Of a DNA stretch of 64,000 nt, positions 74 through 64,000 are shown in pieces. The first letter of the stretch is position 1. Each line of letters opens with the position of its first letter. Where the stretch lies: assembly GCF_041146345.1 (NCBI RefSeq), contig NW_027191404.1, forward strand, positions 1 through 64,000. Reading direction: 5' to 3'. The position numbers and the translations under genes are program-made. The notes under the pieces are model-generated. The model was given only the letters and a program-made list of their open reading frames with translations. It made no database searches and was not told the origin of the DNA. The stretch comes from Neodothiora populina (lineage: Eukaryota).

Positions 74-938
74 TACCCTCTGCGCCCTCCACACCCTCTT
101 CCTCCTCACCATCATCACCACCCCTGTCACGATAGGCCGGCTCGGCAAGCGCGCTAGCGGCTAGATTAGCCAGGAAAGGGAAACGAGCCGGATCGACCGC
201 CAGAGCGGCGGCGGCAGCAGCAAAGGCCGCAGGAGAAGCGACGGCGGCGTTGTTAGTCGCGTCGGCGGCCAGAGCGGCCATGAACAGGACATACTGCAGC
301 AAGTCAGCAAGGTGCTGCGCAGGGAGAGCGCATGGGTTACTTACATAGTACGCCAGGTCGTAAAGACCTTCCAACGCCACACGAATGCCGCGGGCCTCGC
401 AAAGCAAGGCGTCATTAACGCTAAAGTCGCCACCTAGGAGCACCGCATTAGCAGCGCCGGCGGGAGTCTTAATGCGCGACGGGGTGGGGATGTCATCCAC
501 CGCCGCCGTGCGCTAACGCGCGCCCGCGTGCATGCGAGACTCGAACTCGCGATATAAGTTGTTAACGTGCGCCGCGTTAGCGTTAATCTCCGCCTAGGTA
601 ACGCTAGGGTCCCCTATGCGCGCCTTATGCTCGATGCGAGCCTCGATCACCCTATTCATATAGGGGATAAAGCGCTGCTCCACCGCAGCGCAGGCGCCCT
701 TCTTAGCCTTGTAGCAGCGCCAGCAACGCTAAGTCATGCCCAGCTCAAAACGCGCATCGCAGTCGGCTAGAATTGTCGTTAGCGCACGTGGACCGCAGGG
801 TCTGCGAAAGAGTAACTTACGTTCGCCGATGCGGTAAACATGATGGGCACAACGGCCGCACATGTGTTCAAGTGGCTCCTCGTAAGAGCGAGTCTATCGC
901 CGCACAGGCGGCGCGGGTACGATAAACTTTAGCGGCAT
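74..938 (-). pseudogene. RIP-mutated 3-exon gene for a Zn(II)2Cys6-like protein, 3' end fused to the telomere
   Basis: ATG at 938; exons 938-821, 766-345, 293-74; introns 820-767 (GTAAGT..GCTAAC..TAG) and 344-294 (GTAAGT..GCTGAC..CAG) keep one frame. Translation includes CGRCAHHVYRIGEPDCDARFELGMT*RCWRCYKAKKGAC. Four in-frame stops (896-894, 731-729, 596-594, 515-513) are all TAG, compatible with CAG>TAG. No stop before the telomere. Confidence 0.75.
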
Positions 939-1271
939 TGCTGCAGCGCGGGAGCAGCGATGATGTTTAATAGATAAGCAGGCGCAGCGCAGGCGCCGCG
1001 AGTGAGTTATCTGTGAGGTAGACTAACGAAACGCAGGAGCAAAGCAGTTAGATCATAAGATCCAAAAAGAACAAAGTGAAATGTGATTAAAGAAAGAAGG
1101 AAATCAAAACAACACCTACCAGTTGATATAACCTACTATAGGGGCTACGCACCGCACGCGTGGCTAGGGGGGTTGACCTTTGTTTACATTCTTATTGCTA
1201 TCCTATAGAATGGATGGTATTGTTGCTATTAAGATGAGGACATCTCTATAGAGAGAGAAGGTAGTTGTAAT

Positions 1272-1315
1272 AGCATAGGTGACCTGTGCTTTACAGCATA
1301 GGTGACCCGTGCTTT
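1272..1315. repeat. Tandem duplication, 23-nt period
   Basis: agcataggtgacctgtgcttt followed by agcataggtgacccgtgcttt. Confidence 0.9.
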
Positions 1316-1523
1316 GGGTCGCTAAGTAGGGGTCTAGATGCCTTAGGCGTCGACCCTTTTGTCCGAACCCCGCTTACAGTACCGCATGCTTGTAGCATGC
1401 GGGCCGCATGCGCGGTATTCACTATATGAGAGGGGTGTCCCCTCATTGCCTATTGAAGGCAACGATTAGTCTTGATCTTATAGGACATCTATTCCTATAG
1501 GAGGACCATACGTTGCTACACTT

Positions 1524-1553
1524 AGTTATTCCGTTACAGTTATTCCGTTACAG
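1524..1553. repeat. Tandem duplication, 14-nt period
   Basis: agttattccgttac twice, followed by ag. Confidence 0.9.
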
Positions 1554-1594
1554 ACAGCTCATATAGGCATAAGCCTACAAATAGCTTATAGATT

Positions 1595-1614
1595 AAATCA
1601 AATCAAATCAAATC
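1595..1614. repeat. (AAATC)4 microsatellite
   Basis: Four exact copies. Confidence 0.9.
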
Positions 1615-1776
1615 TTTAACGGATCTACTCTTAGCCTTATCTAATAAAATTTTCTGAATCCAACGTACCCTAAATCTAGTGTACCTGGCTCTGGCCCCCG
1701 TAAAACCTTATTTGTATGGGCTTCTAAATCCAGTCTACCATCGCTGGATTTGACACTTTTGGTTCGACAATTACGT

Positions 1777-2342
1777 AGCCTCACAACTAATCCTTAACAG
1801 ATACCACCAATGTCGTTTATCTGCGTGACGGTCGCTACTGATATATAAGGTGGTATTCCTTCCTAAGAGGCAAAAAAAGCAAAGTCTTCCGCGAGCTGGC
1901 GTTCCATGCCAGCCTTAAGGACAGTAGTGCTTACAGCCTGGAGCACAGGAATCGGCTGCGACAGCTTCGGTGGTAAAGTTATGAGTCGATGATTCTAAGG
2001 CGAAGTCTTCTTATGAAGCGCTGCTACATCATTCTCGAAAGTGTCACGATATGTGAAATCCTAAATCGACATCTAGCTCGGAGGCTTAAATGGTTAGAAT
2101 GATTTCAAGCTGGCGAGCTCACCTGAATTTGTCTACAGATCTGTCGACGTCGATAGCTGCTGGCCCCGCAATGCTTCTCGCTGATAATCTATGTCTGTTA
2201 TGCAAAGCTGCGTGGAGCAGCGTACCTCTATATATTATCGGTGCTGTTAGAGCACGGTTGAGTTAGATAAGAGCTTGTCCAGCATAGCGTCAATCTGACT
2301 GACGTCGTGCATGTTGATGTCGCTTTAAGATGCATATGTCAT
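1777..2342 (-). pseudogene. RIP-decayed ORF, possibly the N-terminal part of a fungal OTT_1508-like deaminase-domain protein
   Basis: One frame from ATG 2342 with scattered TAA/TAG stops; contains ERQLAEDFAFFAS*EGIPPYISVATVTQ..GLVVRL, resembling the E-x2-LA-x2-(F/L)AF..V-x-A..L-x2-R-L segment I recall from fungal OTT_1508-like proteins. Family call is from memory only. Confidence 0.4.
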
Positions 2343-2359
2343 ACATATGAAACTATGCA

Positions 2360-3441
2360 GATGCAAGAGGCGGCATAGCAATATCTAACCCTACTGTTCA
2401 CGTACGTACAAGCTCTTACAGCAGTTTCACTACCGGTAGATATAGGGACTAGCTGCTGTATTGTACTTTCTGTTTCTCTTCGCACCAAATTTTGTAACCT
2501 TATCCGCAAATGTCAATTTCATGCACACTTTGTAGTTGTCGAGCTACTTACTTGGGCTGGTGGGGTAGCGTTGGCTCATGGATGATCTAAACGTTTCGCA
2601 TAGTAGGGAGATTTGCGCACTGGTCAGATTCTCCCAGTCTATTTGCAGGTACAGTACTCCGTAGCTACCATGGCGCTCCAGAAGGTCTTTGCTTAGTCTC
2701 AAGGGATAGGAGAAAAGGTTGGCCGGAGTCAAGAGGTCCTACGAGCGCATTCTAAGCTGAAGTCTTCGAATCAGCGGTGAACAATCCATCGATCATTTCT
2801 TCACGTGTTCCGCGGACTGCTTCTCTTTCTCTAGTCGATGTCGGCGACTTCAGATACTATTATCAGGTGGTAAAGTACGAAGGGCTGCGTTAATGATTAC
2901 AGAGACAATTTCCAGGTTTAGAAAAGCATTTGTGCTTTTAACGATCTTCTCTACGGTTGGGTTAGAGAATCGCTATCTTCAAGCGGCTTTGTAGACAGGC
3001 GTAATCATGCTCTTACAAAAGCCATTGTAGCTAAAGTCCTTTCGTACACTGTTAGAATAATTCGACCTTAGATCCTTACTGCATATTGATACAATTTTGT
3101 TAGACAGCCTAGCTAGAATTCGATCGTCCCGTAGTGTTTTCAAGGATAACATTTAGTCTACCAATCTGTGTCCTAAATTGTCCTGCGCTTGTAGCTGAGC
3201 ACTACTATCGCCTTTAGCAGATTAACGAGAGGTTCTAACTGCAGCTCTATGAGAAGAGACTCCAGCTGGACCCCATTTAAAACAGCCGGCAGATATAGTC
3301 ATGATCGGGTCTATAGATTTCGAGGGCACTGTCATCTCGCATCTCGAAAGCCAGGACAAGATGTATTCGATGAGACTGGACCTGAGGCCTTGTATATTCT
3401 TGCTGATAATCGCGGTGGACAGGAGTGCATTGGGAAGGCGA
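2360..3441 (-). pseudogene. Decayed (RIP-like) coding fragment of unknown family
   Basis: The frame of track ORF 3222..3710 continues with protein-like sequence (ALLSTAIISKNIQGLRSSLIEYILSWL..LARLSNKIVSICSKDLR..FCKSMITPVYKAA) broken by isolated stops; TpA-rich. Confidence 0.35.
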
Positions 3442-4675
3442 CACGGGTGCGTCAGCTCTCGATGGGTAATAGAAAGCGAGATCCCGGATTTCGATCTCGC
3501 CATTGCATTGCAATGGTACTTGACCGATTGCGGACATTGAATCGACTTCAGAGGGCCTGTCAATAATCTTGAATAAATCATGCGCAGCTGAAGCGGCTTT
3601 TGCGATCGCAATGATCTGTGGAGCGGCTTGCGTAAGAGCTGTCGCGGCCACAATGACGGCGAAAACAACTGTAACGACAGAGCCCGACGCTTTGATCTCG
3701 CCATTGGCATACATATGAGTGCCTCGCCAGAAGGTCAAGCCGATGCCCGCGATGATACAGAAGAACTCGGTGGAAGACATTACCCCGTATACAGGTCTCT
3801 TCCTTCGCCCTTCGCGTTTAGCTTTGAGGAGCAGAGCATCATATCTGTCAGCTAAGCGAGGACGAGCCCAGAGGGCATGTACATTTCGCATGCTAGAGAA
3901 AACATCTTCAGCAAGAGCACCCGCTATACTATAGATATCCAACATCTTTGCTTCGATCTTCATATCAATACCAACACAGATAGCAACGACAATCATAATC
4001 GTTGGCACAATGCTGGATGTGATCAATGTCAACTTCCACTGAACGGCGAACGCCTAGTGGCGGTTAGTCGATTTGACGCGGGAGACTGATTTTGCCATTA
4101 TATTGTACCACTGCGAAAGCAGCAACAAAGGTTGCCAATCCTTGAATAGTAAGTCCGAATTTTTTCGCAATAGCGACGTTCACCAAGCTTGCGTGGGTGG
4201 TTATTTGTACGGTGATTGCACCATTGCTTGACTGATCGAAGAAGGCGATGTCTTGCCGTAGGGCTTGTCGCAAGAAGTCAATCCGCAAGCTTTTAGTAGT
4301 ATGCAAAGCGGATATATTGAGCGCCAATGTCCAGATATATGTCAAGCAGAATCTTGCGATGAACAGGTAGATGAACCACAGCGTCCAGGGTACAGACTTC
4401 GCGCGGAACTCCCCCGGTGATATCCTATCAGTACCAAAGTCGGTAAATGTGGTCACTGTCTTACCAAAAACAAGATCCATCAACGGGAGAAGCGCTCCTG
4501 AGATTATGGCTGCGACTAACGCGACCGAGTTCAGGATCCATCCAGTCGTGTCATTGTATGTGAACATCCGCCAGTAGCTTGAGAAGCCGGCATTGTCTTT
4601 GTCTTCGTCACCATCCTTAGTGCTCTTATTCGTGATATTGACTGGGAGGTCTGTTTTGTCTGAAGGTTCCTTCAT
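3277..4675 (-). pseudogene. Truncated ABCB/MDR-type ABC transporter (first transmembrane domain only)
   Basis: ATG 4675; intron 4108-4054 (GTACAA..ACTAAC..TAG) joins ..FVAAFAV|AFAVQWKLTLIT..; typical TMD1 motifs (LRQDIAFFD, GEIEIRDLAFYYPSR). ABC-like sequence ends at YYPSRADAPV (~3442), before Walker A; an unrelated tail runs to a stop at 3277. Confidence 0.85.
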
Positions 4676-5423
4676 GATTTTCAAATCGATCCTCACACCC
4701 GATGGTCAATGACCTTCTATGATTGCTAGTGGGATAGCCCATATTGAATATCAGGCAAGACTACTTAAGGTATACATACAAGAATACCTCATCAGTAACA
4801 TTAGACTAGGCAGCCAGGATAGACATACTGCTCGAGAATAAATTTACAGGACCTAGAACCGATGACGAGATTAATGCTGAGTGATTGGTCCTTGTAGCGT
4901 GGAGATGCTTGGCGGGCGATGGTCGGAGTAGCTTGGCCGGATAGCGAACGTGTAATTGGCTATAACAACGCCCGAATCGTCACCACTTCTTTCTTTCGGG
5001 ACCGGACACGGGCTGAGAAGAAACTTGCGTAGTCCGGGTACGATTGTACAATTGCAAAATGTGTGGAGGTGTAAAATCCACCTTGTATCCGGTAGGTATA
5101 GCAAATTTGATGTCAGGGTCGAGTACAGATCTTAATCTCGCAGCTGAAGAAATGTATGTGTCATCGCTGATGCAGCAGAGCAAAGCCTACTTCTGCATAG
5201 GACACTACGAGCCATAGGATCTTCTGCACTGCGGCTGACCAGTCACGACCACACACCTCGTGCCTGACGTGAGGTAGTTTCGTATCCACATGGTGTAGAA
5301 CACCGTATATGCAGATCGGGGTCCATGACCGAAGTTCGTGTGTTAGTGTATGGGGACCAAGATTATCAATCTTGCTGGCCTATTTGTCGAGCCATTTCTG
5401 CAATGGTGCCATACAAACGCCCA

Positions 5424-6673
5424 TTACTTTTTGGTATAGGGCGGTACTGTGTAATATAACAAACCGTGCGCAGAAGAGGCACAGAATGCAGATAACCAAT
5501 GTATCCAGTGGGCATGCATGTCCAGATTTGCAGCCATTAAGCCAAAGCATCTTGCAGGATTGAGTGCTGTGGTCAGGAGAGGAAGTAATTAGCCGCTGTA
5601 GTTCAAACGACGACCAAAGATGTGAGGCATGCATTGGGGCCGCAAATGTAAAGCCCATACTATGACATCGAGGGGAACGCGAAGGTACATATGACTCACA
5701 GGCTCCAGCCCATCCGTTATTTGTAAACGCTGAAGCAAAGCTGACTAGACCGACCGACAGACCAACCAACACAGGACCGTATGCAGGACCGAACACTTGG
5801 CTTTGTCGCGGGTCTAGACCAACGCCAAAAGCTATGAATAGCAAAGTAAGGGCGGACATAAATTCGAGCACGAAAGCTTGTCCATTACTGATCATACTCG
5901 TATCGATAGAGCAGCCAGCAACTGTTCCCTAAAGAATTGTAAGCACGATAGGCCATCAAGCAAGAGACCACGATGTCCAGGGTAGTAGCTCTAATAAGAT
6001 GCGGAGAAGGAAGGAGAAGGACTGCATAGGGTGGGAAAACGCACTCCAGGGTAATAAAGATCACCTCCTAGGCCGAGTTTCAACATAAAAGCTCCGCATA
6101 AAGAGCCAATGCTCTGGACGAGGACATAAATGACTGAACGAGGAAATGTCGATAGCCCACCAGCGAAGGTGCCCATGGTAATGAGTGGATTCAAATGGCC
6201 ACCACTGACTGGACCACACGCATAAACCAGAAGTGTCACCGCGATCCAAGTAGTCAGACCAGCCACTAATTGGACTTGCAGCGATGTAGAAGCCACGTAA
6301 GGTCCGCTGGACGTTGCGATCATGCCCACAATGAAGACTAACATTCCAGTGCCTGAAATGGAAAAGTAAGTACACCACCGTCATGTCTCTTGCATGCATA
6401 GAAGCTACCTAGGAACTCAATGACGGCTGCCCTCCATATTATAGGGTTGAAGAAGCCACTCAGATCGAAGACATCCTTTAGATGACTTAGTGGAGCAGCG
6501 TCTCGTGTTTCTTCGATAAGGTGTTCTTCTGTAGAATCCGATGAAGCAACAAATGCCTGGTTGCCACCAATTCGACCAGCAAACAATGGCTGGTCAACTT
6601 TCTTGTTGGAAAATGCCTGGTTACCACCAACTCGACCAGCAAAAAAAGGCTGATCAACTTTCCTTTGCGACAT
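5424..6673 (-). CDS. Aquaporin, X-intrinsic protein (XIP) subfamily
   Basis: Exons 6673-6409, 6352-6045, 5928-5700, 5566-5424. Motifs SGGHLNPLIT (variant first NPA), GLDPRQ and SLNPARCFG (NPARC, the XIP signature). Confidence 0.9.
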
Positions 6674-19959: not shown

Positions 19960-22900
19960 CTATCGTCTCACGCCACCGTTCATCCTTGCCGCTCCGCCTT
20001 GGAACAAAAGCTTGAAGCCATTCTTCAGAGCGCGCATATCAGGGTACTGATGTCGTTGTAGCTCGAATGCATTAGGGATAACCTTGACGGGCCACGAGGC
20101 CAGAGGTGCTGCTTGACCGGCCTTGAAGCAAATATAGAAGTAGCCGGGGTATTTGGGGTTGATGCAGAATGCGTACATTGAACGTTTAGGGTTAGCTTCG
20201 GTGTATGTGTTGAGCCATTGTTCTGGGGAAGAGAAGTCAGTAAAATGAGATAGGAGTCAAAGAGTCAAGACTTACCAGTCTGCGCCTTCGAGCCGTTTTG
20301 ATAGCGCTCGTCTGTCATCATCTCCTCCATTTTTCGGCTCATCGCTTGCACGTGAAGAACGATCAACTCGTCGAGATCAGAATAGCTGTACTTGCCACCG
20401 ACTTTGAGCGTACGACCGACGGAGAACTCGTTCTCCTTGTCGAGTTCTAGCACGTCGATGTGCTGGAAGACGCCTTCTGAAACCTTCCAGGTGACAGCCA
20501 AGTGGTCCAGCCCCTTCGACGAAGGGCGGATCACAACGTCGCCTCGAGACTGAGATCCAAGATATTCTTCTGCTTGTGCGGAGTTGAAAGGTCGGAAGAG
20601 AGGGTGCTTGATGACACGTTGAGCGCGTCCAGTGGCGCGGTCTCTCTCCTTGTCAACCTCTTTCTTGTCCAGAGCCTCCTGTTGGTCATCCCACTCGCCA
20701 GGCTCGTGATCGAAGTCGCGAGTGAAGCCGCTGCGCAGAGCATCCTCCCGTAGACTCAGCTGCGCGGTGAATTTCTTGCGGTCGATGTATAAGAGCTTGG
20801 CTTGGATTGTCTGGTGCGCTTGCCACACATTACGCGGCTCGACTCCACCATCGCCTCCTACGCCCGAAGGGTATTCCATCTCGGAAATGCCACCGTCGAT
20901 GCCGCAGTCCAGCTTGACCTCGATGTGATCGGCAAACGTGCGCTTGACCTGAACAGGCACAATCATGCCATCCATGAGCGATTGTTTCGTTTCGCCCGTA
21001 AGCATGGTGAAGATCTCTTCGCTGCTCAGCAGATAGAATGACTGGCGTAGCTCTTCGTATGGCTGCTGAAGCTCGCCACGGATGAGTTCGAGAGTTGCCT
21101 TCTTCTTGAGACCCAACTTTCGCATGATCTCTTCTGCATAGTTGTCGAGAATGAGCTCGTTGAGAGTCTCCTGTTGCTCTTCTTTAATGAGCTTTCTCAC
21201 CACACCATTGGGACCGAATTCGTCAATCTCGGCCTTGACATCTTCTTCGTCCATGTCCAAGGTGTCTGCGACAATCTTTCGTGCTGTTTCGTAGTCCTCG
21301 GGGTGGATACGGGTGTTGTCGAGGTAGTCGGACTCGACTTCGGCGTCTTCGTAGGTGATGTAGACGAAGGAGGCGCAGTTCTCAAAGATCTTGGGGCCGA
21401 CAGCAGAACGCTTATTTCTTTCAATGTCGCCGACAAGTTCATCCCTGGTTAAAACTTCGCCGCCGTTCTGGTTGGCAACTTTGATGATCTGGGCAGCTTT
21501 CCTGGGACCCAGTCCGGAAACGTAGGGTAATAGATTAGCCGTGTACGAGTCGGAGATGGCCTCGTTGATGTCGACACCGACGAGATTCACGGTCTCAATC
21601 ATGGCCATTTCGAGGTTCTTGATGATCTTCTCTTGCGGGATGAGGGACTGGTTCGGCGTAAAGGAAATGGAGATGATGTCACGGCCGAGGGCGGCATACT
21701 CCTTGAGGGGCGATTGCATGTAGCGAGCGAGGGCAACGCAGTATCGGGCGAGTGGCGGCAAGGTGGGGTGTTCTGACTGGGCACGGTCGCTGGTGTGATA
21801 GAGACGGGCGACCTCGTCGTTGGTGATGACAACGTCGAGTTTCTCGCTCATCTCCCTGCCATCGTCGTCCTCGTAAGGGGTTCCTCGGAGATCGAATCTG
21901 TCGATGATGTCCTGGAGGTCCTTGTACAGCCTGCGTGTCTCGACGGACCAGCCAGAGACGGAGACGACATCGGGCTTGCGACGTTCGATGAGGTCCACCA
22001 GAGGAGCGACGTCGGCGCCGTTTGGCAGGAATCGCTCTTCGTTGCCCAGGCGCAGGTCACTGTACTTGCCGTTCTCGAGCACTCGTCCGTTCTCGTCCAT
22101 GTAGACCCAGCACACGGCATCGTTCCTCTTGCCGGCGCCGTTGGATAGCGCCAAGACTCGAGGGGTGGTGCCCAGGACCATGCCTCGCGGCTTGAAAGGG
22201 GCCTGGTCCAACTTCTCGGCGTATGCGGCACGACACGAGCGCGCAATCTGAGACTCGCACTCGGTCTTGAGGTTCTCCTTGACACCCTTGATGATGGATC
22301 GGGAAATTTTGGAGATGGCTTGGTCCAAGACCTGTCTGCGCATCATGTTCCATGCGTCGGCGACCTCACTGAAGTTGTCGGATTCGATGTGCTTGTACAG
22401 GTCCTCGCGGAAGCGCTTGGAGTTTTGCAGAGACAAGCGCACCTCGACCAGGCCTTCGTCCTCGGCCTTGAGCATGCGCAGGAACAGCTCGGGACGGCGG
22501 GCGATGGCGCCGAAGCCTTGGGCTCGGATGTACTTGAATTCGTAGTAGGGATGCTCGGCGTCGATTTTCCTCAGACCTTTTTCGGTGCGGTAGACATCGA
22601 ACAGACCGTCCATGTAGAAAGTCTGGCGCATGACCTTGCGCATGCGAGGACTCAAGGCCAGCTCCTCGGCGAACATGGCCTTTGCCGCATTCGTGACCTG
22701 CTCTCCCGTAGAATACTGATCGTCGAGGAGTGAATCGGCCATGTCGTCGGGTCGCTCGGGCGGGTCCTCGGTGTAGTGCTTCTTGCCCAGCTTCAGCGCG
22801 TTCTGCGCCAGAGCGTCGGGGGAGATGCCAAAGGCCTTGACCATGTTGTAGACTCTGCTCTGGCGGATGCGTTCCCACACGCTGCGGGCGCCTCTCGCGC

Positions 22901-24462
22901 GCTTCTGGGTGCCGTTGGATTCGGCATCGTAGACGACGGCGTCTTTGAGCTGCTCGGCATACTGGAAATGCATGTAATCCTGGACGTCCTGCAGCTCCTC
23001 CATGGTCACGGCAGCGGGGATCATTTCGTCAAAGACATTGTCCTCAAAGTTGGGTCTCTGCTTCAGGCCATCGACGGCTTTGGACAGAGCCTCGCGCTTC
23101 TCGGCAAATGCCCGATATTTCAAGTCGAGTTCGCCGATTTCCCAGAGATCAGCGGCGACGAGCAATCGCTGGGCCTTGATCTCTGTGCGCTCGCCATCCG
23201 GGTCGTCGGGCGAAGGGGAAGATCGAACGCGCTCTTCGTGGATCAGGTAGTCCTTGCGGTTGTGCAGAATAAAGGGCATCTCGAGATCGTCGACATTCAT
23301 GAAGCGCAGGACGTCGCCGACGATGGCGCGGAAGGGCTCGATGAGGTCGCGGTCGAGTCGTTTCTTGGGCAAGAGGAAATCGGAGATCCAGCGTGTCTCC
23401 TCGAGCAATCTGGCGCTCATCTCCTCGTCGGACAAGTCGACGGGCCTGAAGGCCTTGCGGGCGATCTGGTAGCGCTCGGGCACATCGGCCTTGCGGATAA
23501 TGTCGTCCTCCTCGGTCAACATGCGGTCGACGAGCTGCGAAGGCTCAAAGACATCCTTGAGCTCGAGGGGTTTGTCCAGTCCGTCCTGCTCGTCGTCGGC
23601 CTCCTCTTGCAGCTGCAGCGCCCAGTCGTACTCTGTGCCGTCACCGAAGGCGGCCATCATGTCTTCCTGGGCCGACTCGTCGAGGCCGCTCTGCATGCGG
23701 ATGGGGTCGACGTAGCCGTGTTTGGCGGGTCTGCGGACTTCTGCCTCGTCGCGCATGGCCTCGCGCTCCTCGTCGGGGAACTCGTCTTCCTCGATGAAGT
23801 CTGCGAACTCGTCCTGCATGCCTCTGGCCTCGCGGCGGCGGTCGTCGGCGCCGGCGTCATCGTCGTCGTCGGAGAAGATGTCGTCGATGCCTCGAGCTTC
23901 GGCGCGTTCTCGGTCTTCGCGGTGGCCGCGCTTGAGGCGTTTGAACTGTTTCTGGTTTTGGGTTGTTTTAGTCTTGCGTCTTGCCACACTTGAGGATGAT
24001 GCAGAGAAAAGGGCAGAAAAGAAACAGAGAAAAGAAGAAAAGATACCTGTTCGTCCTGTCGGCGCTGGTAGTCCGGATGCGTCTCTCCGATCAGATCCAA
24101 ATCCTCATCGTCGAGCATGGCATCCTCCTCCTCTCGCTCTTCTCTTCGTCGCTTTTTGCGCTCGCGTCTCCTGGCTCGGCGCTCTTCCTCGTCGACGTCT
24201 TCGTCTTCGTCGACGATGAAACCTTCTCGAATCTGTGATTTGATCTTGTCAACTATGACCGCTCTTGTATCTGACAGTGATAAAGGCTGACCTCTCGCTC
24301 GGCTTCTTCGTCGTCGTCCTCTTCCTCCTCGCTCGAGTCGTCCATGTTGGCGCCATTGGTGGGTCTGGTCTTTGTCTTGACCGCGCCCGTCTGCTCGTCG
24401 TAGTCCTCGTCTTCTTCGCTGCCGAGCTCGGCGTCGAGATCAAAGAGGTTCGCGGTAGCCAT
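19960..24462 (-). CDS. SPT6: Transcription elongation factor / histone chaperone Spt6
   Basis: Exons 24462-24292, 24232-24047, 23951-20276, 20222-19960. Acidic N-terminus, VFEPSQL, YqgF/HhH region (SGLGPRKA), TRIHPEDY, S1 and SH2-like regions ([15 protein letters not shown]). Confidence 0.97.
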
Positions 24463-55315: not shown

Positions 55316-55407
55316 TCCGATGTGGTCTAGTGGCTAGGATTTGCCGCTCTCATGGCTCTACAGCAAGAAGATCCGGCAAGGCCGGGGTTCAATTCCCCGC
55401 ATCGGAA
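55316..55407 (+). tRNA. tRNA-Glu (CTC) with 20-nt intron (55353-55372)
   Basis: Acceptor TCCGATG/CATCGGA, D-arm GGTCTAGTGGCTAGGATT, anticodon stem TGCCG/CGGCA around CT-CTC-A, T-loop GTTCAATT, downstream T-run. Confidence 0.93.
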
Positions 55408-56209: not shown

Positions 56210-58372
56210 TCAAGGTTCATCTTGCATCAGGGTCCTCAGCCTTGCCAGCTTGTCGATGCAAGGCTCAGCGAGCATGAAGTAGTTGTTCCTGGCCTTTTTG
56301 GTCAACAGAAGCTGCATGATGAGCCAATATGGGTAGCCATTCTTCCAGAAACCCAGGCTCTCCCATTCTGAGGGGGTGCATGATGCACGCATGTTCTGCC
56401 ACGATTGGTGCCATAAATCGAGAGCGGCCCTGATGGGCTGGAGAAAATCGGGATGATCTTGTCGATGACCACTAACAAAAGTGTCATGTTCTGCGCCTAC
56501 AAGGAAGCGCAAACGCATACGGCTGTGTAGTACAACATACAGGGCTTGACACGGTCAGCAGGCGAATGAGCTTCAATGTGCAGGTCGAGACATACCATGA
56601 ATCACAACAAAGGTATCGAAAGCCAGCATGCCTTTACCCGTGGGACCTGCGTTGAACTTGGACAATGGATCTATACACCTGCCATCCACGTCTTTTTCTG
56701 GGTGCAGGTAGTCTTGCAAGATGTCGAGGATGGTGGTGCGACGCGACGGGGAAAAGTCGGGCAAGGAGAAAGGATGGAGGGACTCGAATAACGAGTCCTT
56801 GCTTGGCAGATCACACTGCATCTCTGTCACGTCGAAGTGGGGCGGAAAATTGACAAAGAAGATAAAAGAGCAATCGACCAGCCATATGCAGTTCATAATG
56901 CTGTATTCGTGTCAGTCAGAAGGCTCGGGTGAAATGCAAATGAAAGTCAATTGATCTGCGTACCGTACTTGACACTCTTTACGTATCCACGCCTGTTCCG
57001 AGATGGAGTCTTCAGGGAGATGTCGCGTTCGTGTAAGGCCCATTTCGCGGACTCTCTGAGGCTTTGTCAGTCACATATCTCGGTTTCTTGATATAAGCAA
57101 GCTCACCGTGACGAGCTGGGGAAACCTCATTTCTAACGCGCGCTTCCTGGCGATCCCGTTGCCACCCCAGTACTGGATGATGAACATCAGAAACGCGGCT
57201 TGCAAATCTGGACCATTCCTTTCCCAGGAGTAGTCCTCCTTGGAGGGTGCTATGCCTTGGTATGCGTTGCGGATGGACTGGTAAGGAGTGTACATGGAGG
57301 TGGAGAAGATGAAGACCTCGGCGATGTCGAGTATGCGGCGCACGGAAACCATCTCCACGGCGTCGTCAGAGAACATGGCACCCATAAGCACGATGGCAAC
57401 AACTAAAGTCGTTGCGCTAGTGTTGATGTCAAAGCCCGGAGCGTAGATTGTGCGGAAGTTGGGCTGCCAAGTCGAGAAAAACAGGGCGGTGAATCTGGTC
57501 ACCCTCTCTGGAGTCAAGAGAAATTCTAGCGTCGAGAGGATGGCTTGCTCCCCGGCGGGGTCAAGGCCGATTTTCCAGCAATTGGAATATATGGAAGAAA
57601 TCAGATTGGAGCACAACCCATCTTGGTTCGGTGGCGCGGCTGGACAAGCCGGATCAGCGGCCACGTTGGTCAGATCTTCTCCGCCTGGTATCAGAAAGGG
57701 TTTCGACGTTAAATCCTGCGGTACAGAAAGGCCGAAGGGGTTGCTGAAGTAAGAAGTCAGATTTTCGTCGAAAGTCTGAAAGCCGTCGAGTGGCTGAGTG
57801 GTGGGGATCTGGAAGGCACGTATATAACGAGCAGGCAGCGCGACTACAGGAGCAGTAGCACCGGCAGTAGCACCAGCATAGTGCGAAATGTCGTTCACGA
57901 TGGGGGCGGACCGGACGTGATCGATGGGGCGAGGGAAGTTGAAGGGCACCAACCAGCCCTCGGTACCGGCATTCAAGAGGAAATTGATAGAGCCGCGGTC
58001 GGGAACCTCATTTTCGTGCTCGATCACGATAGACTCAGGAGTGGGAGTGCGAGTGTCGGGTTGCCTGCGGCAGGTGTAACTCTTCTCGCGGCACCAGTTG
58101 CACGGTTGATGTCCGTCACATCGCTTTTTGGAGGTGATGCACTGCTCGCAAGCGTGGCGACGTCGGCCCTTGGGCGCAGACCTGGGGATCTCACGATTGC
58201 CCCGCTCGTTGCAGTCATTGTAATGGTCTCGAAGTTTTTCCGATCGAGTGAAGGCCTTTGTACAAAATTCACATTTGTACGGCTTCTCACCCGTGTGACG
58301 AAGCTGATGTCTCCGAAAATGGTCGGTCCTCGAGAAGGACAGGCTGCAGATCTTACATGTGTGATCATTCAT
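56210..58372 (-). CDS. Transcription factor with C2H2/C2HC fingers, Zn(II)2Cys6 cluster and fungal TF-type C-terminal region
   Basis: Exons about 58372-57107, 57055-56964, 56900-56596, 56544-56210. CKIC..HFRRHQLRHTGEKPYKCEFC..HYNDC, then CEQCITSKKRCDGHQPCNWCREKSYTC. Confidence 0.9.
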
Positions 58373-60465: not shown

Positions 60466-60513
60466 ACGACGACGACGACGACGACAACAACAACAACAAC
60501 AACAACAACAACA
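60466..60513. repeat. Compound (ACG)n(ACA)n microsatellite upstream of the PLD gene
   Basis: acgacgacg.. changing to acaacaaca.. Confidence 0.9.
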
Positions 60514-60674
60514 GCAACGACACAAGGCAGCTGGTTCTGCCACTCGAGCACCCTTGACACTCAGACGTCGACGATCAGGCCCGACTGTACTTTTCTCTGG
60601 ATATCTTCATCGCTCTTACTATCAGAGAAGCAAGGCGCAAGTGTAGCAAGAACAAGAGAAAGAGAGACCGAGGG

Positions 60675-62748
60675 ATGGAATTGTTTGTGGAGAGACCCCG
60701 CGAACAGGTTTCAGCAAGAGACACGAGTCCAGACCGGAGTCCGCGCAATCTATCACCAACGACAGCGACCACCAGATCCAGATCCAAGTCCAGAGAAGAC
60801 CACAGAGACAAGACTCTGGCGACAGAGGCGAACGGAGGCTATGTCTTGCCTGCCTCACCCTTGCGAGCTGCCTTTACTCCTGACACGGCGGGAGATGACA
60901 CCTTGAGACCATCGACGGCGCCCGGTGGCGGTGAATTGGATGACGAGCACGTGTACGACAATGGACAGAACAGGAGTCAGGGTCAGCAGCAGCAGCAGAA
61001 TCAGAATCATCATCTTCACCATCCGAGACACCATCTGGTGCATCGTGTGCATCCTGGTCCCCCCAACCCCTCGGACTTCCATCTCGCCGCGTCGTCACAC
61101 GGCGATGCTGCTCCTTCTTCGTCTCTGTCTCCCTCACCCTCACCCTCACCCTCGCTACTCTCTGGCAGACCGAGGCCTCTCGCCCTGCGTCACGATTCGG
61201 ATCCGCAGATGTCCACACTGGCCCAGAGACGCGCCAACGCCGCCTCGTCGTCCGTACAGCCGACCGCCGCCGACGGCCAGCCACACATATCACTCGCCGA
61301 GCTGCAAGCCTCACTGGCATCGACGTTGCATCTGCCCGACGAGGCCGAAGAGACCACGGAAGCAGAGGGAGAAAGAGGCAGGAAAGGTTCCTTCTTCGGC
61401 AAGCTCAAGGCCAGCTTCACACCCACACACTCGCGTCAAGCCAGCGAGATGACGACAGCAGGAGGAGCCGCCGCCGCCGCCGCAGCAGCAGCAGCAGCAG
61501 CTGGACCAACAGCAACAGCAGGAGGTGCGGCGGCGGCAGGAACAGGATACACCACGCCAGTCATGACGCCCCATTCAGAGCTGGACGAGCCGCGCTACCC
61601 CACCTCCAACCTCGACGGAAGCGAGGCAGAGGCAGACGTCGACGACAGCGAACGAGACGACTCGACCCACGCCGCCACCGCCTCGGCCGCCGACCCGGCC
61701 AACAAACCCAAGAAGAGACGGAGGGGAAGAAAGAGAGCGGCTGGCACAGACGACGCTCCCTCCAGCGCACCCACAACCCCCAAGACGCCTCGCTTCCACT
61801 CGTTCATGAACCGCCACGAGCCTCGCGCCGACCACTACTTCAGTCCCATCAATGCCAGTCTCTCGTCGTCCATGGACCAGCGGCCCCCTGGCTTCCTTCC
61901 TCGCCGCTCCAACACGATGAGCGAGATCCCCGAACACGCAAGAGCTGGAGTGTCCGAGGACGAGGGCCGCGACAGGCTGGCCAAGAGCGCGTGGAGACGA
62001 GGACTGGACAACGCCAGGGGGTTGAGCTATGCGGCGCACAACAGCAGCAGCAGCGGCAACAAGCGACCCGGCGAGTCCGAGACGCCAGACACACGCAGAC
62101 CGGGGCTCAGTGGCATGCGCCGCATGACGGGCTTCGAGAGCGGCAACGGCAGCTCCCCCTGGAGGACACGCGGCGACCGACAGATGAGCGCCAGCGCGCA
62201 GAAGTGGCGCCAGGTCAAGGCGGGGCTGCAGATGCTGGGCCGGCGCGAGAAGAACAAGCGACAGACTGTGGACCACCAAAAGTCGGCCGAGCTCATGGCC
62301 GAACTGCTCGCCGGCTCGCCCGCCGCCATCTTCTTCGCCAGCATGTATCAGCGCGACGAGCACGGCCGCCGCAAGATCCCCGTCTTGCTCGAGCAGCTCA
62401 AGATCAACATCCCGACCAGCCACACGCGCGAGAGCAAGGGCGAGCGCCACACCGTCTTCACCATCAATCTCGAGTACGGCAACGGCCCGTCGCGCATGAC
62501 CTGGACCATCCACCGTTCGCTGCGTGACTTTGCCAATCTGCATCTCAAGTACAAGTTCCAGAGCCAGAGCGAGCGCTACAACCTGCTGAAGAGCGACGAC
62601 CGCTCGGGGCTCAAGATGCCGCGCTTCCCCAGGTCTGCTTTTCCCTACCTGAGAGGCGTGCGAGGACTCGGCGACGACGAGGGCGAGGACGACAATGATA
62701 ATGCCATTGCCGAAGTCAGCGGCCCGGAGGGAGAGGCCAGTGGTCCCG

Positions 62749-62779
<31 letters not shown>

Positions 62780-64000
62780 GCAACAACAACACCAGAGACC
62801 TGGCTTCAAGAAGACGAGACGGTCCTCGCTGGCACCTTCCAGGCGAAAGTCCAGCGGAAGTCACGTGGTGCCCGACAGTGCGGCAGGCGCGCTCACCAGA
62901 GCAGGCAGCATGGTCGGCGCCGTCAGTCTGGCGGCCAACAACCCGCGGGCCAAGGAGCTGTACACGGATCGACAACGCAAGAAGCTCGAGATTTATCTGC
63001 AGCAGATGATCAAATGGCTCATCTTCCGTCCCGATGCCAACAGACTCTGCAAGTTTCTCGAGCTGTCCGCCTTGGCCATGAGGCTCGCCGTCGAGGGAGG
63101 TTACCACGGGAAAGAAGGCCATCTGACCATAGTCTCCAAGCCCAAGATCGATCTCCGAAGACGGCCGACTGCTCCCTCGGCCAGCGCCTTCAAGCGTAAG
63201 CATGCTCCCAAGTGGTTTCTGGTTAGGCACAGTTATCTTGTCGCTGTCGACTCGCCCGAGTCGCTCGTGCCGCAGGAGTGTTTTCTCGTCGACGCCGATT
63301 TCTCCACCGAGCGCAAGAAAAAGGACATGCGTGATCAGAGCGGCAAGGAGATGGCTAGAAGCGCCGCCGCCACCGCTCAGCCCAAGCATCACATGTTGAA
63401 GCTGTACAACTCGGAGCGAAAGCTCAAGTGTCTGGCCAAGAACGAGCGTCAGCTGCTGCAGTTCAAAGAGTCCATCGAGATCATGCAAAAGAACACGATA
63501 TGGTCTCAGAACCACCGCTTCGACAGCTTCGCCCCTGTGCGCAAGAACGTCTTTGCCCGCTGGCTGGTCGACGGCCGAGACCACATGTGGCAAGTCTCGC
63601 GCGCCATCGACAACGCCCGCAGCTTCGTCTATATCCACGATTGGTGGCTGAGTCCGGAGCTGTACATGAGACGACCCGCCGCCATCAGTCAGAAATGGCG
63701 TCTCGATCGGCTTCTGCTACGAAAGGCACAAGAGGGAGTCAAGATTTTTGTCATTGTCTACCGCAACATCGAGTCTGCCATTCCCATCGACTCCGAGTAC
63801 ACAAAAGCCGCCCTGCTCGACCTGCATCCCAACATCTGCGTGCAGAGATCTCCCAACCAGTTCCGACAGAACCAGTTCTTCTGGGCCCATCACGAGAAGC
63901 TCGTCGTCGTCGACAACGCCATGGCATTTGTCGGCGGCATAGACTTGTGCTTTGGCAGATGGGACGACCCGAACCACTCCGTCACTGATGACAAGCTCAC
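60675..64000 (+). CDS. SPO14: Phospholipase D1 (Spo14-like), 3'-incomplete
   Basis: Open frame from ATG 60675 to the window end (absent from the ORF track because it has no stop in the window). FASMYQRDEHGRRKIPVLLEQL, PX-like region, WLVDGRDHMW, IHDWWLSPELYMRRP, first HKD motif WAHHEKLVVVD..GGIDLCFGRWD. True start codon uncertain. Confidence 0.95.

Follow-up and report, generated by a model that had tools for sequence, protein, structure and literature searches.

A telomere-truncated, probably RIP-mutated relic of a small six-cysteine gene at a chromosome end of Neodothiora populina

In the zinc-cluster factor Gal4, basic residues of the first half of the cluster contact DNA. Repeat-induced point mutation (RIP) requires a duplicate, and its defining readout is the set of transitions observed relative to the unmutated copy. 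In canonical C6 architectures, as described in PMC6078315, the first loop of the cluster spans six residues (x6); RIP is widely reported in the Dothideomycetes, according to PMC11412873; and de novo telomere truncations have been documented at Magnaporthe chromosome ends, according to PMC1635262. Here, we compare with these systems a minus-strand gene that abuts the telomere in a 64,000-nt stretch of DNA from the dothideomycete Neodothiora populina (assembly GCF_041146345.1, contig NW_027191404.1, positions 1 to 64,000; hereafter, the window). We consider it probable that this locus is a dead, 3'-clipped copy of a small three-exon gene with six cysteines (Cys6), truncated at the telomere and lightly mutated by RIP, and we tentatively propose that intact members of its family are zinc-binding nuclear regulators.

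The gene occupies a minus-strand frame running from an ATG at 938-936 to base 75, in which two canonical introns separate three exons and four in-frame TAG codons interrupt the reading. Exon 1 (938-821, 118 nt) encodes the N-terminus and the first CxxC pair, and contains one TAG. Exon 2 (766-345, 422 nt) encodes the third to sixth cysteines (Cys3-Cys6), a helical region, a basic linker containing a PTP motif and a further helix, and holds three of the four TAG codons. Exon 3 (293-75, 219 nt, 73 codons) encodes an Ala-rich segment followed by an acidic tail, and reaches the telomere without a stop codon. Intron 1 (820-767, 54 nt, phase 1) reads GTAAGT...GCTAAC...TAG, and intron 2 (344-294, 51 nt, phase 0) reads GTAAGT...CTGAC...CAG. 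Splicing joins the exons into 759 nt, or 253 codons, with zero frameshifts, and the closest in-frame stop upstream of the ATG lies 29 codons above it.

This gene had been proposed, in a prediction made from the letters of the window, as one missing from the mechanical list of open reading frames (ORFs). Our analysis shows it to be a genuine spliced gene of a kind that such lists overlook, and the two introns, the three exons, the frame of approximately 253 codons and its freedom from frameshifts all held as originally drawn. The four stops are indeed all TAG (896-894 in exon 1; 731-729, 596-594 and 515-513 in exon 2), the second of them lying two residues ahead of Cys4, inside the second x11 loop. 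The six-cysteine module (690-860) extends from the Cys1 codon at 860-858 to the Cys6 codon at 692-690 and is split by intron 1; in the spliced translation its spacing is C-x2-C-x11-C-x11-C-x2-C-x7-C, and the Ala-rich segment and acidic tail follow it, just as had been claimed. The length of each intron is divisible by three and neither contains a stop, so the open frame is in itself no proof of splicing, and the proof comes from the relatives of the encoded protein.

An exhaustive phmmer search of 1.84 billion protein representatives returned three matches at E<=1e-3, including P0002 (E=3.5e-5) and P0003 (E=2e-4), and no protein at E<1e-10. The third match, P0001, is a 581-aa internally repetitive protein matched over seven short stretches; it was deemed spurious and excluded from all alignments. 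A word-indexed homology search with the single window sequence gave no match, and Pfam analysis of the read-through protein yielded only DUF3857 at E=0.11, under its cut-off. A profile search enlarged the family to 14 hypothetical proteins of 134-243 aa, with high scores for P0002 and P0003 that arise by construction, both having been part of the query. In a protein atlas, the search returned only Ascomycota clusters annotated as hypothetical protein and without a family; for a neighbouring ORF, the atlas gave taxa at the level of phylum only. The one species-named relative is hypothetical protein Q7P35_000810 of Cladosporium inversicolor (P0011, 207 aa); this NCBI model is the only correctly spliced relative, and it ends in the acidic tail EKEDEEDEEDEEEDEGMEDEMDE. 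P0002, P0004-P0010 and P0012-P0015 are mis-called ORFs, which either take their start from within intron 1 or continue across intron 2, and we interpret the R/M-rich text at the C-terminus of these relatives as the acidic tail read in a shifted frame.

No member of the P0002-P0015 family has a known function or a Pfam family, and Pfam analysis of the 15 members revealed no homologue resembling a transposon protein. As judged from their sequences, these proteins are an unnamed Ascomycota family, present at least in the Dothideales and in Cladosporium, that has neither a Pfam model nor a name. The original prediction had listed three outcomes that would count against it, namely the lack of any other copy or homologue, cysteines not conserved among homologues and descent from a transposon protein; what we found is homologues, conserved cysteines and no resemblance to transposon proteins.

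The relatives also bear on the gene structure. The alignment of P0003 shows an 18-column gap at intron 1 and a cysteine spacing identical to that of the spliced window gene, so that only the spliced form of the window gene matches P0003; moreover, P0003 begins with MP and has a leader similar in length to window exon 1. Unspliced relatives read VS (GTAAGT) right after a conserved LVEVGK helix, at the very column where P0011 is spliced, and show a branch-point-like LLT ahead of the third cysteine. We interpret VS and LLT as read-through of two shared introns, one before Cys3 and one after the last core helix, these positions being derived from the protein sequences of the relatives rather than from their DNA. 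Across the family the spacing is CxxC-x11/12-C-x10/11-CxxC-x6/7-C. Cys3 is kept in 10/10 covering rows, Cys4 and Cys5 in 11/11 and Cys6 in 10/11, and Cys1 and Cys2 are present in 3/3 rows holding exon 1 (3/5 of those nominally covering it, the two misses being ORFs that start inside intron 1).

The openness of the frame is not beyond chance, as the best of six frames had four or fewer stops in 1395/5000 mononucleotide shuffles (28%). Its codon-position composition is of coding type (43% G in the first position, 7% A in the third), and a hidden Markov model (HMM) built from the 14 relatives without the window row found a sole match among 127,996 six-frame residues. This match falls on exon 2, spans profile positions 11-141 and scores 41.0 bits (E=4.5e-14 in that search). 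Thirty shuffles of the whole window produced no instance of the family cysteine spacing. On the strength of these comparisons, we regard it as confirmed that the locus is a genuine gene relic.

The absence of the stop codon and of the 3' end at the telomere had been overlooked in the original prediction. The telomere repeat, (CCCTAA)12, lies at 2-73 on the plus strand, comprises 11 overlapping exact 12-mers and, read outward to the chromosome end, is TTAGGG; the rest of the 64 kb is free of interstitial telomere repeats, and each of the four remaining matches carries two mismatches. At the junction between telomere and gene (74-80), the minus strand reads ...GCAGAGGGT-A-TTAGGG, and because AGGGT is common to the last codons and to the telomere repeat, the boundary is ambiguous by up to 7 nt. 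The gene frame has no terminal stop and reads on into the telomere as (RV)n. The acidic tail DRGGDDGEEEEGVEGAEG (75-128, minus strand) is cut by the telomere, whereas its P0011 counterpart EKEDEEDEEDEEEDEGMEDEMDE is followed by a stop. In relatives the acidic tail comes to its end within some 25 residues, so that the missing piece is probably short. We infer that breakage or erosion of the chromosome end reached the final codons for the acidic tail, and that the break was healed at a microhomology: gene and repeat have GGGT in common, as would fit the addition of telomere repeats to a broken end. With four in-frame TAG codons and without its stop codon and 3' end, the gene cannot work at this locus.

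RIP is the most likely cause of the point mutations, at a strength short of demonstration. Relative to eight intact ORFs of the window, the gene has 18 T|A codon bridges versus 6.1 expected (p=5e-5), 14 TAN codons versus 7.4 (p=0.017) and a single Gln codon versus 8.8 (p=0.0013), and its CA+TG count per kb is the lowest among the nine sequences. All four stops of the gene frame are TAG, compared to 25/69 (36%) in the other five frames, there are no indels in the 759 nt, and the splice signals are intact. The composite RIP index reaches 0.37 in bin 1-1000, which includes the telomere, and 0.25 in bin 1001-2000 (product index 1.23, substrate index 0.98), compared to <=0.01 in the other 62 one-kb bins. 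Nowhere in the window except in the gene and its upstream flank at 939-2000 (44-49% GC, TpA-rich, with no recognisable coding) is the composite index clearly positive.

Several observations weigh against RIP. The conventional cut-off for the substrate index is 1.03, and segment 73-940, with a product index of 1.18 and a marginal composite index of 0.06, has a substrate index of 1.13 and hence fails the RIP cut-offs. The stringent RIPper substrate cut-off is lower still (<0.75, as given in PMC11412873). TA density (50 per kb) does not exceed the 38-50 per kb found in three low-GC3 ORFs of the window that are intact, and NTA codons are not enriched (6 versus 4.3). By inspection, three of the stop columns are occupied in relatives mostly by K, E, N or R, with Gln in one row at one of them, and are uninformative as to the original codons. 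The window also holds no second copy from which the direction of change in the damaged gene could be read. The original description of the stops as RIP-type is thus upheld in part, by the T|A bridges, the depletion of Gln codons and the lack of indels, and is not upheld by the substrate index.

Some of the relatives carry a directional signature. From P0008 to P0012, 24/28 differences fit C>T or G>A in one direction, with no directional bias in the control pair P0008/P0013, and this bias points to hypermutated duplicate copies of the family in other fungi. From P0013 to P0014, 12/18 differences fit C>T or G>A, and many R>C and C>Y changes are seen across the P0012/P0014 pairs, a pattern suggestive of duplication and RIP of the family in other species. 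For the window gene, we propose that point substitutions with a TpA-creating bias would stem from a light RIP episode, which would have occurred when the terminal ~2 kb was duplicated or adjoined duplicated DNA.

The original prediction had likened the cysteine module to the GAL4-type cluster, and our results do not support membership of that family. PF00172 matched 0/15 family members at E<=10, compared to a score of 24.3 bits, against a cut-off of 21, for the genuine Zn2Cys6 protein of the window (57071-58372). Alignment with hhalign to the window's own Zn2Cys6 domain gave a probability of 0.3% over 11 columns, and profile searches of the PDB found nothing relevant, the profile of the cysteine module having no match. 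A match to NNF1 in the PDB profile search (E=5.4) was rejected as spurious. The first loop is x11 in the window gene and P0003 or x12 in P0011, not x6, and the other spacings fit the Zn2Cys6 pattern; our literature search found no paper on atypical cysteine spacing in Zn2Cys6 binuclear clusters.

Structural predictions add a weak lead. The AlphaFold models of P0011 and P0003 (mean pLDDT 60.9 and 59.0, respectively) place a short helix at each CxxC with low confidence (pLDDT about 48-64 in the cysteine module) and predict confident long helices, with block means of 83-93 for P0011 residues 61-110. In P0011, the model further includes a disordered basic linker with a conserved PTPxK/R, a further helix and a disordered acidic tail, and a homodimer prediction of its helical core (residues 55-170, two copies) gave a score of 0.02 and no verdict. 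Foldseek searches with the P0011 model returned generic helical hairpins only (best E=0.6). Those with the P0003 model returned 22 weak matches (best E 2.4), 11 of which are Zn2Cys6 DNA-binding domains with E 2.7-8.6: Ppr1, three of Leu3, three of Gal4, two of Pho7 and two of Put3. Foldseek scoring uses amino-acid identity, so the aligned cysteines may drive these Zn2Cys6 matches. The HMM, profile and structure comparisons that had been suggested with the original prediction divide into sequence tests that are negative and a weak, non-significant fold lead. The failed sequence tests, the low confidence of the cysteine module, the P0011 fold search and the sensitivity of Foldseek to aligned cysteines all count against a zinc-cluster interpretation.

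The family protein is probably nuclear, with a length of about 200-250 aa. Its fixed layout places the six-cysteine module at the N-terminus, then a helical hairpin, a disordered basic PTPxK/R linker, another helix and the acidic tail. Intact members would bind zinc through the six cysteines, and the regulator layout that we propose comprises a metal module, helices, a basic stretch resembling a nuclear localization signal and the acidic tail. We tentatively infer, at somewhat less than even likelihood, that intact members work like a small zinc-dependent nuclear regulator, yet lie outside the Zn2Cys6 family as it is defined. That they represent a miniature, expanded-loop relative of fungal zinc-cluster proteins, carried on a duplicating subtelomeric or mobile segment in the Dothideomycetes and repeatedly killed by RIP, is a speculative and quite improbable extension, under which the window copy and P0012/P0014 would be casualties.

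The original prediction also offered a different account of the locus as a whole, in which the gene is one copy of a multicopy, telomere-linked family or subtelomeric element, with intact copies at other chromosome ends and with RIP due to those copies. We consider this account unlikely. It is favoured by a RIP-like signature limited to the terminal ~2 kb and by the position of the gene directly against the telomere, as well as by near-identical variants of the family in other fungi, some of them directionally hypermutated as in the 24/28 differences above. Telomere-linked families with truncated and mutated copies are, in addition, documented in Magnaporthe (PMC1635262). Family clusters comprise up to 20 member sequences, and one representative occurs on 28 contigs, but these cluster sizes may reflect the number of strains or samples sequenced. 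A repeat search of the whole 64 kb, moreover, returned low-complexity families only and no copy of 74-938, and none of the 1.84 billion representatives reached E<1e-10. The Spt6 ORF at 20265-23987 is 100% identical to N. populina AAFC00_000760 (the next best matches being another dothideomycete at 79% and Aureobasidium at 75-76%), which indicates that the word-indexed collection holds the N. populina proteome and, hence, that the record contains no close paralogue annotated as an intact gene. The only species-named relative, for its part, lies at some point along a 4.05 Mb Cladosporium contig.

An unlikely alternative, with a little less in its favour, is that the gene was the last on its chromosome and single-copy, never duplicated, and was inactivated by terminal erosion, with ordinary decay or RIP leaking from a neighbouring repeat acting later. 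The stop codon is indeed absent at the telomere, the substrate index is not depressed and the window has no second copy; the neighbours are likewise fragments, comprising an ABC transporter that stops short after one membrane domain, along with an incomplete match to a Major Intrinsic Protein (MIP). The mutations themselves speak for a different history: four nonsense changes, zero indels and canonical splice signals within 864 nt have the character of a burst rather than of slow neutral decay, the share of TAG among the stops (4/4) exceeds the 36% of the other frames, and T|A bridges are enriched about 3-fold.

N. populina is the agent of an aspen canker, and a small, cysteine-containing, subtelomeric gene without a Pfam family in such a tree-associated fungus could suggest a secreted cysteine-rich effector of a plant pathogen, of the kind often found near telomeres. 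This is very improbable. Inspection of the N-termini of the window protein, P0003 and P0011 (no predictor was run) showed no hydrophobic signal-peptide core. Helices make up most of the protein, which also has a basic linker and a long acidic tail, and its cysteines form paired CxxC knuckles such as typify metal sites and not disulfide knots. Finally, the notion that there is no gene here, the frame being open by chance in GC-rich DNA or an artefact of assembly, gains from the frequency of comparably open frames in shuffled sequence but is effectively refuted by the match of 41 bits that an independent family HMM makes here and nowhere else in the window, the conserved cysteine and intron positions, and the coding-type codon-position composition. 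We thus retain a dead, 3'-clipped and lightly RIP-mutated copy as the preferred account of the locus.

The surroundings of the gene were also surveyed. Six-frame Pfam analysis of 939-3304 gave nothing and thus no sign of a transposon or of a second gene next to it. By eye, the flank carries plus-strand local duplications and a microsatellite at 1273-1316, 1526-1553 and about 1593-1612 (AGCATAGGTGACC.GTGCTTT twice, GTTATTCCGTTACAG twice, and (AATCA)n). On the minus strand at 3277-4696 lies an ABC-transporter fragment, with one ABC_membrane domain (about 4522-3649) split over two frames; it breaks off at the first residues of the nucleotide-binding domain, with no ABC_tran downstream in 939-3304, and is probably a truncated pseudogene. 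A partial MIP (aquaporin) match, covering profile positions 17-109 of 222, is found at about 6072-6353 on the minus strand, and represents either one exon of a gene rich in introns or a further fragment. Taken together, these features give the terminal 8 kb the appearance of a zone of fragmented genes. Two 52-nt direct repeats, 90% identical and with starts 60 nt apart, occupy 6551-6662 on the plus strand.

Farther from the telomere, ARAGORN reports a 92-nt tRNA-like gene at 55316-55407 (plus strand, labelled 'tRNA-???', with no anticodon assigned) that may be an intron-containing tRNA. The minus-strand ORF at 57071-58372 combines C2H2 zinc fingers with a Zn2Cys6 cluster, CEQCITSKKRCDGHQPCNWCREKSYTC, at 58150-58070, which is the only canonical cluster motif of the window. 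Long coding sequence rich in CAG, CAA and GAC triplets (poly-Gln and poly-Asp type) extends over 60466-62800, in and around a 687-aa ORF (61575-63638) that matches no Pfam family. A literature search on Neodothiora populina found no genome paper by title.

In our assessment, the locus is a real but fairly ordinary subtelomeric pseudogene, and the family behind it is modestly interesting. Because the gene is dead, the direct importance of the locus is small. It does, however, flag a conserved small six-cysteine family, nameless and without a Pfam model, in at least the Dothideales and Cladosporium, and one for which prokaryote-style ORF calling misreads most collection entries by reading through the introns. 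It also provides a worked example of a chromosome end that combines terminal truncation, telomere repeats inside a coding sequence and a RIP-like burst of nonsense mutations. Were the family a zinc-cluster variant that moves along with subtelomeric duplications, it would be relevant to the making and destruction of regulatory genes at fungal chromosome ends.

Comparison with the described systems places the locus at varying distances from each. The Zn(II)2Cys6 domain (PF00172), as found in Gal4, Ppr1, Leu3, Put3 and Pho7, shares with the family its six cysteines in two CxxC-containing halves, a second half (C-x2-C-x6/7-C) that fits the canonical pattern, a short helix predicted downstream of every CxxC and, after these, a long one, and the presence of an acidic tail. 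Unlike Gal4, the first half of the family module is without DNA-contacting basic residues (as seen by inspection of the window protein and P0011), and unlike Zn(II)2Cys6 factors in general the family has no large regulatory domain, the whole protein spanning only about 200 aa. The telomere-linked helicase (TLH) copies of Magnaporthe oryzae, as described in PMC1635262, resemble the locus in being telomere-adjacent and in having copies truncated with the chromosome or killed by stops. The window protein is, in contrast, unrelated to them and has no helicase domain, there are no tandem-repeat blocks or interstitial telomere motifs beside the gene, and the present comparison covers only one chromosome end.

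The resemblance to RIP-mutated sequences of the Dothideomycetes and Neurospora lies in the excess of TpA, in the restriction to point changes and in TAG nonsense codons, as would be expected from CpA-to-TpA changes in a GC3-rich gene; the locus differs in still being 60% GC and in a substrate index that is not depressed, and has thus undergone at most light RIP. With respect to Q7P35_000810 and P0002-P0015, the window copy is set apart by an identity to P0002-P0015 of only 16-35%, an extra Ala-rich stretch in exon 3, four TAG stops and the loss of its own stop codon. It nonetheless shares with these proteins the profile match, the six-cysteine module, the helical core, the PTP-containing basic linker and what appear to be the same two intron positions, as well as, in P0011, the acidic C-terminal tail.

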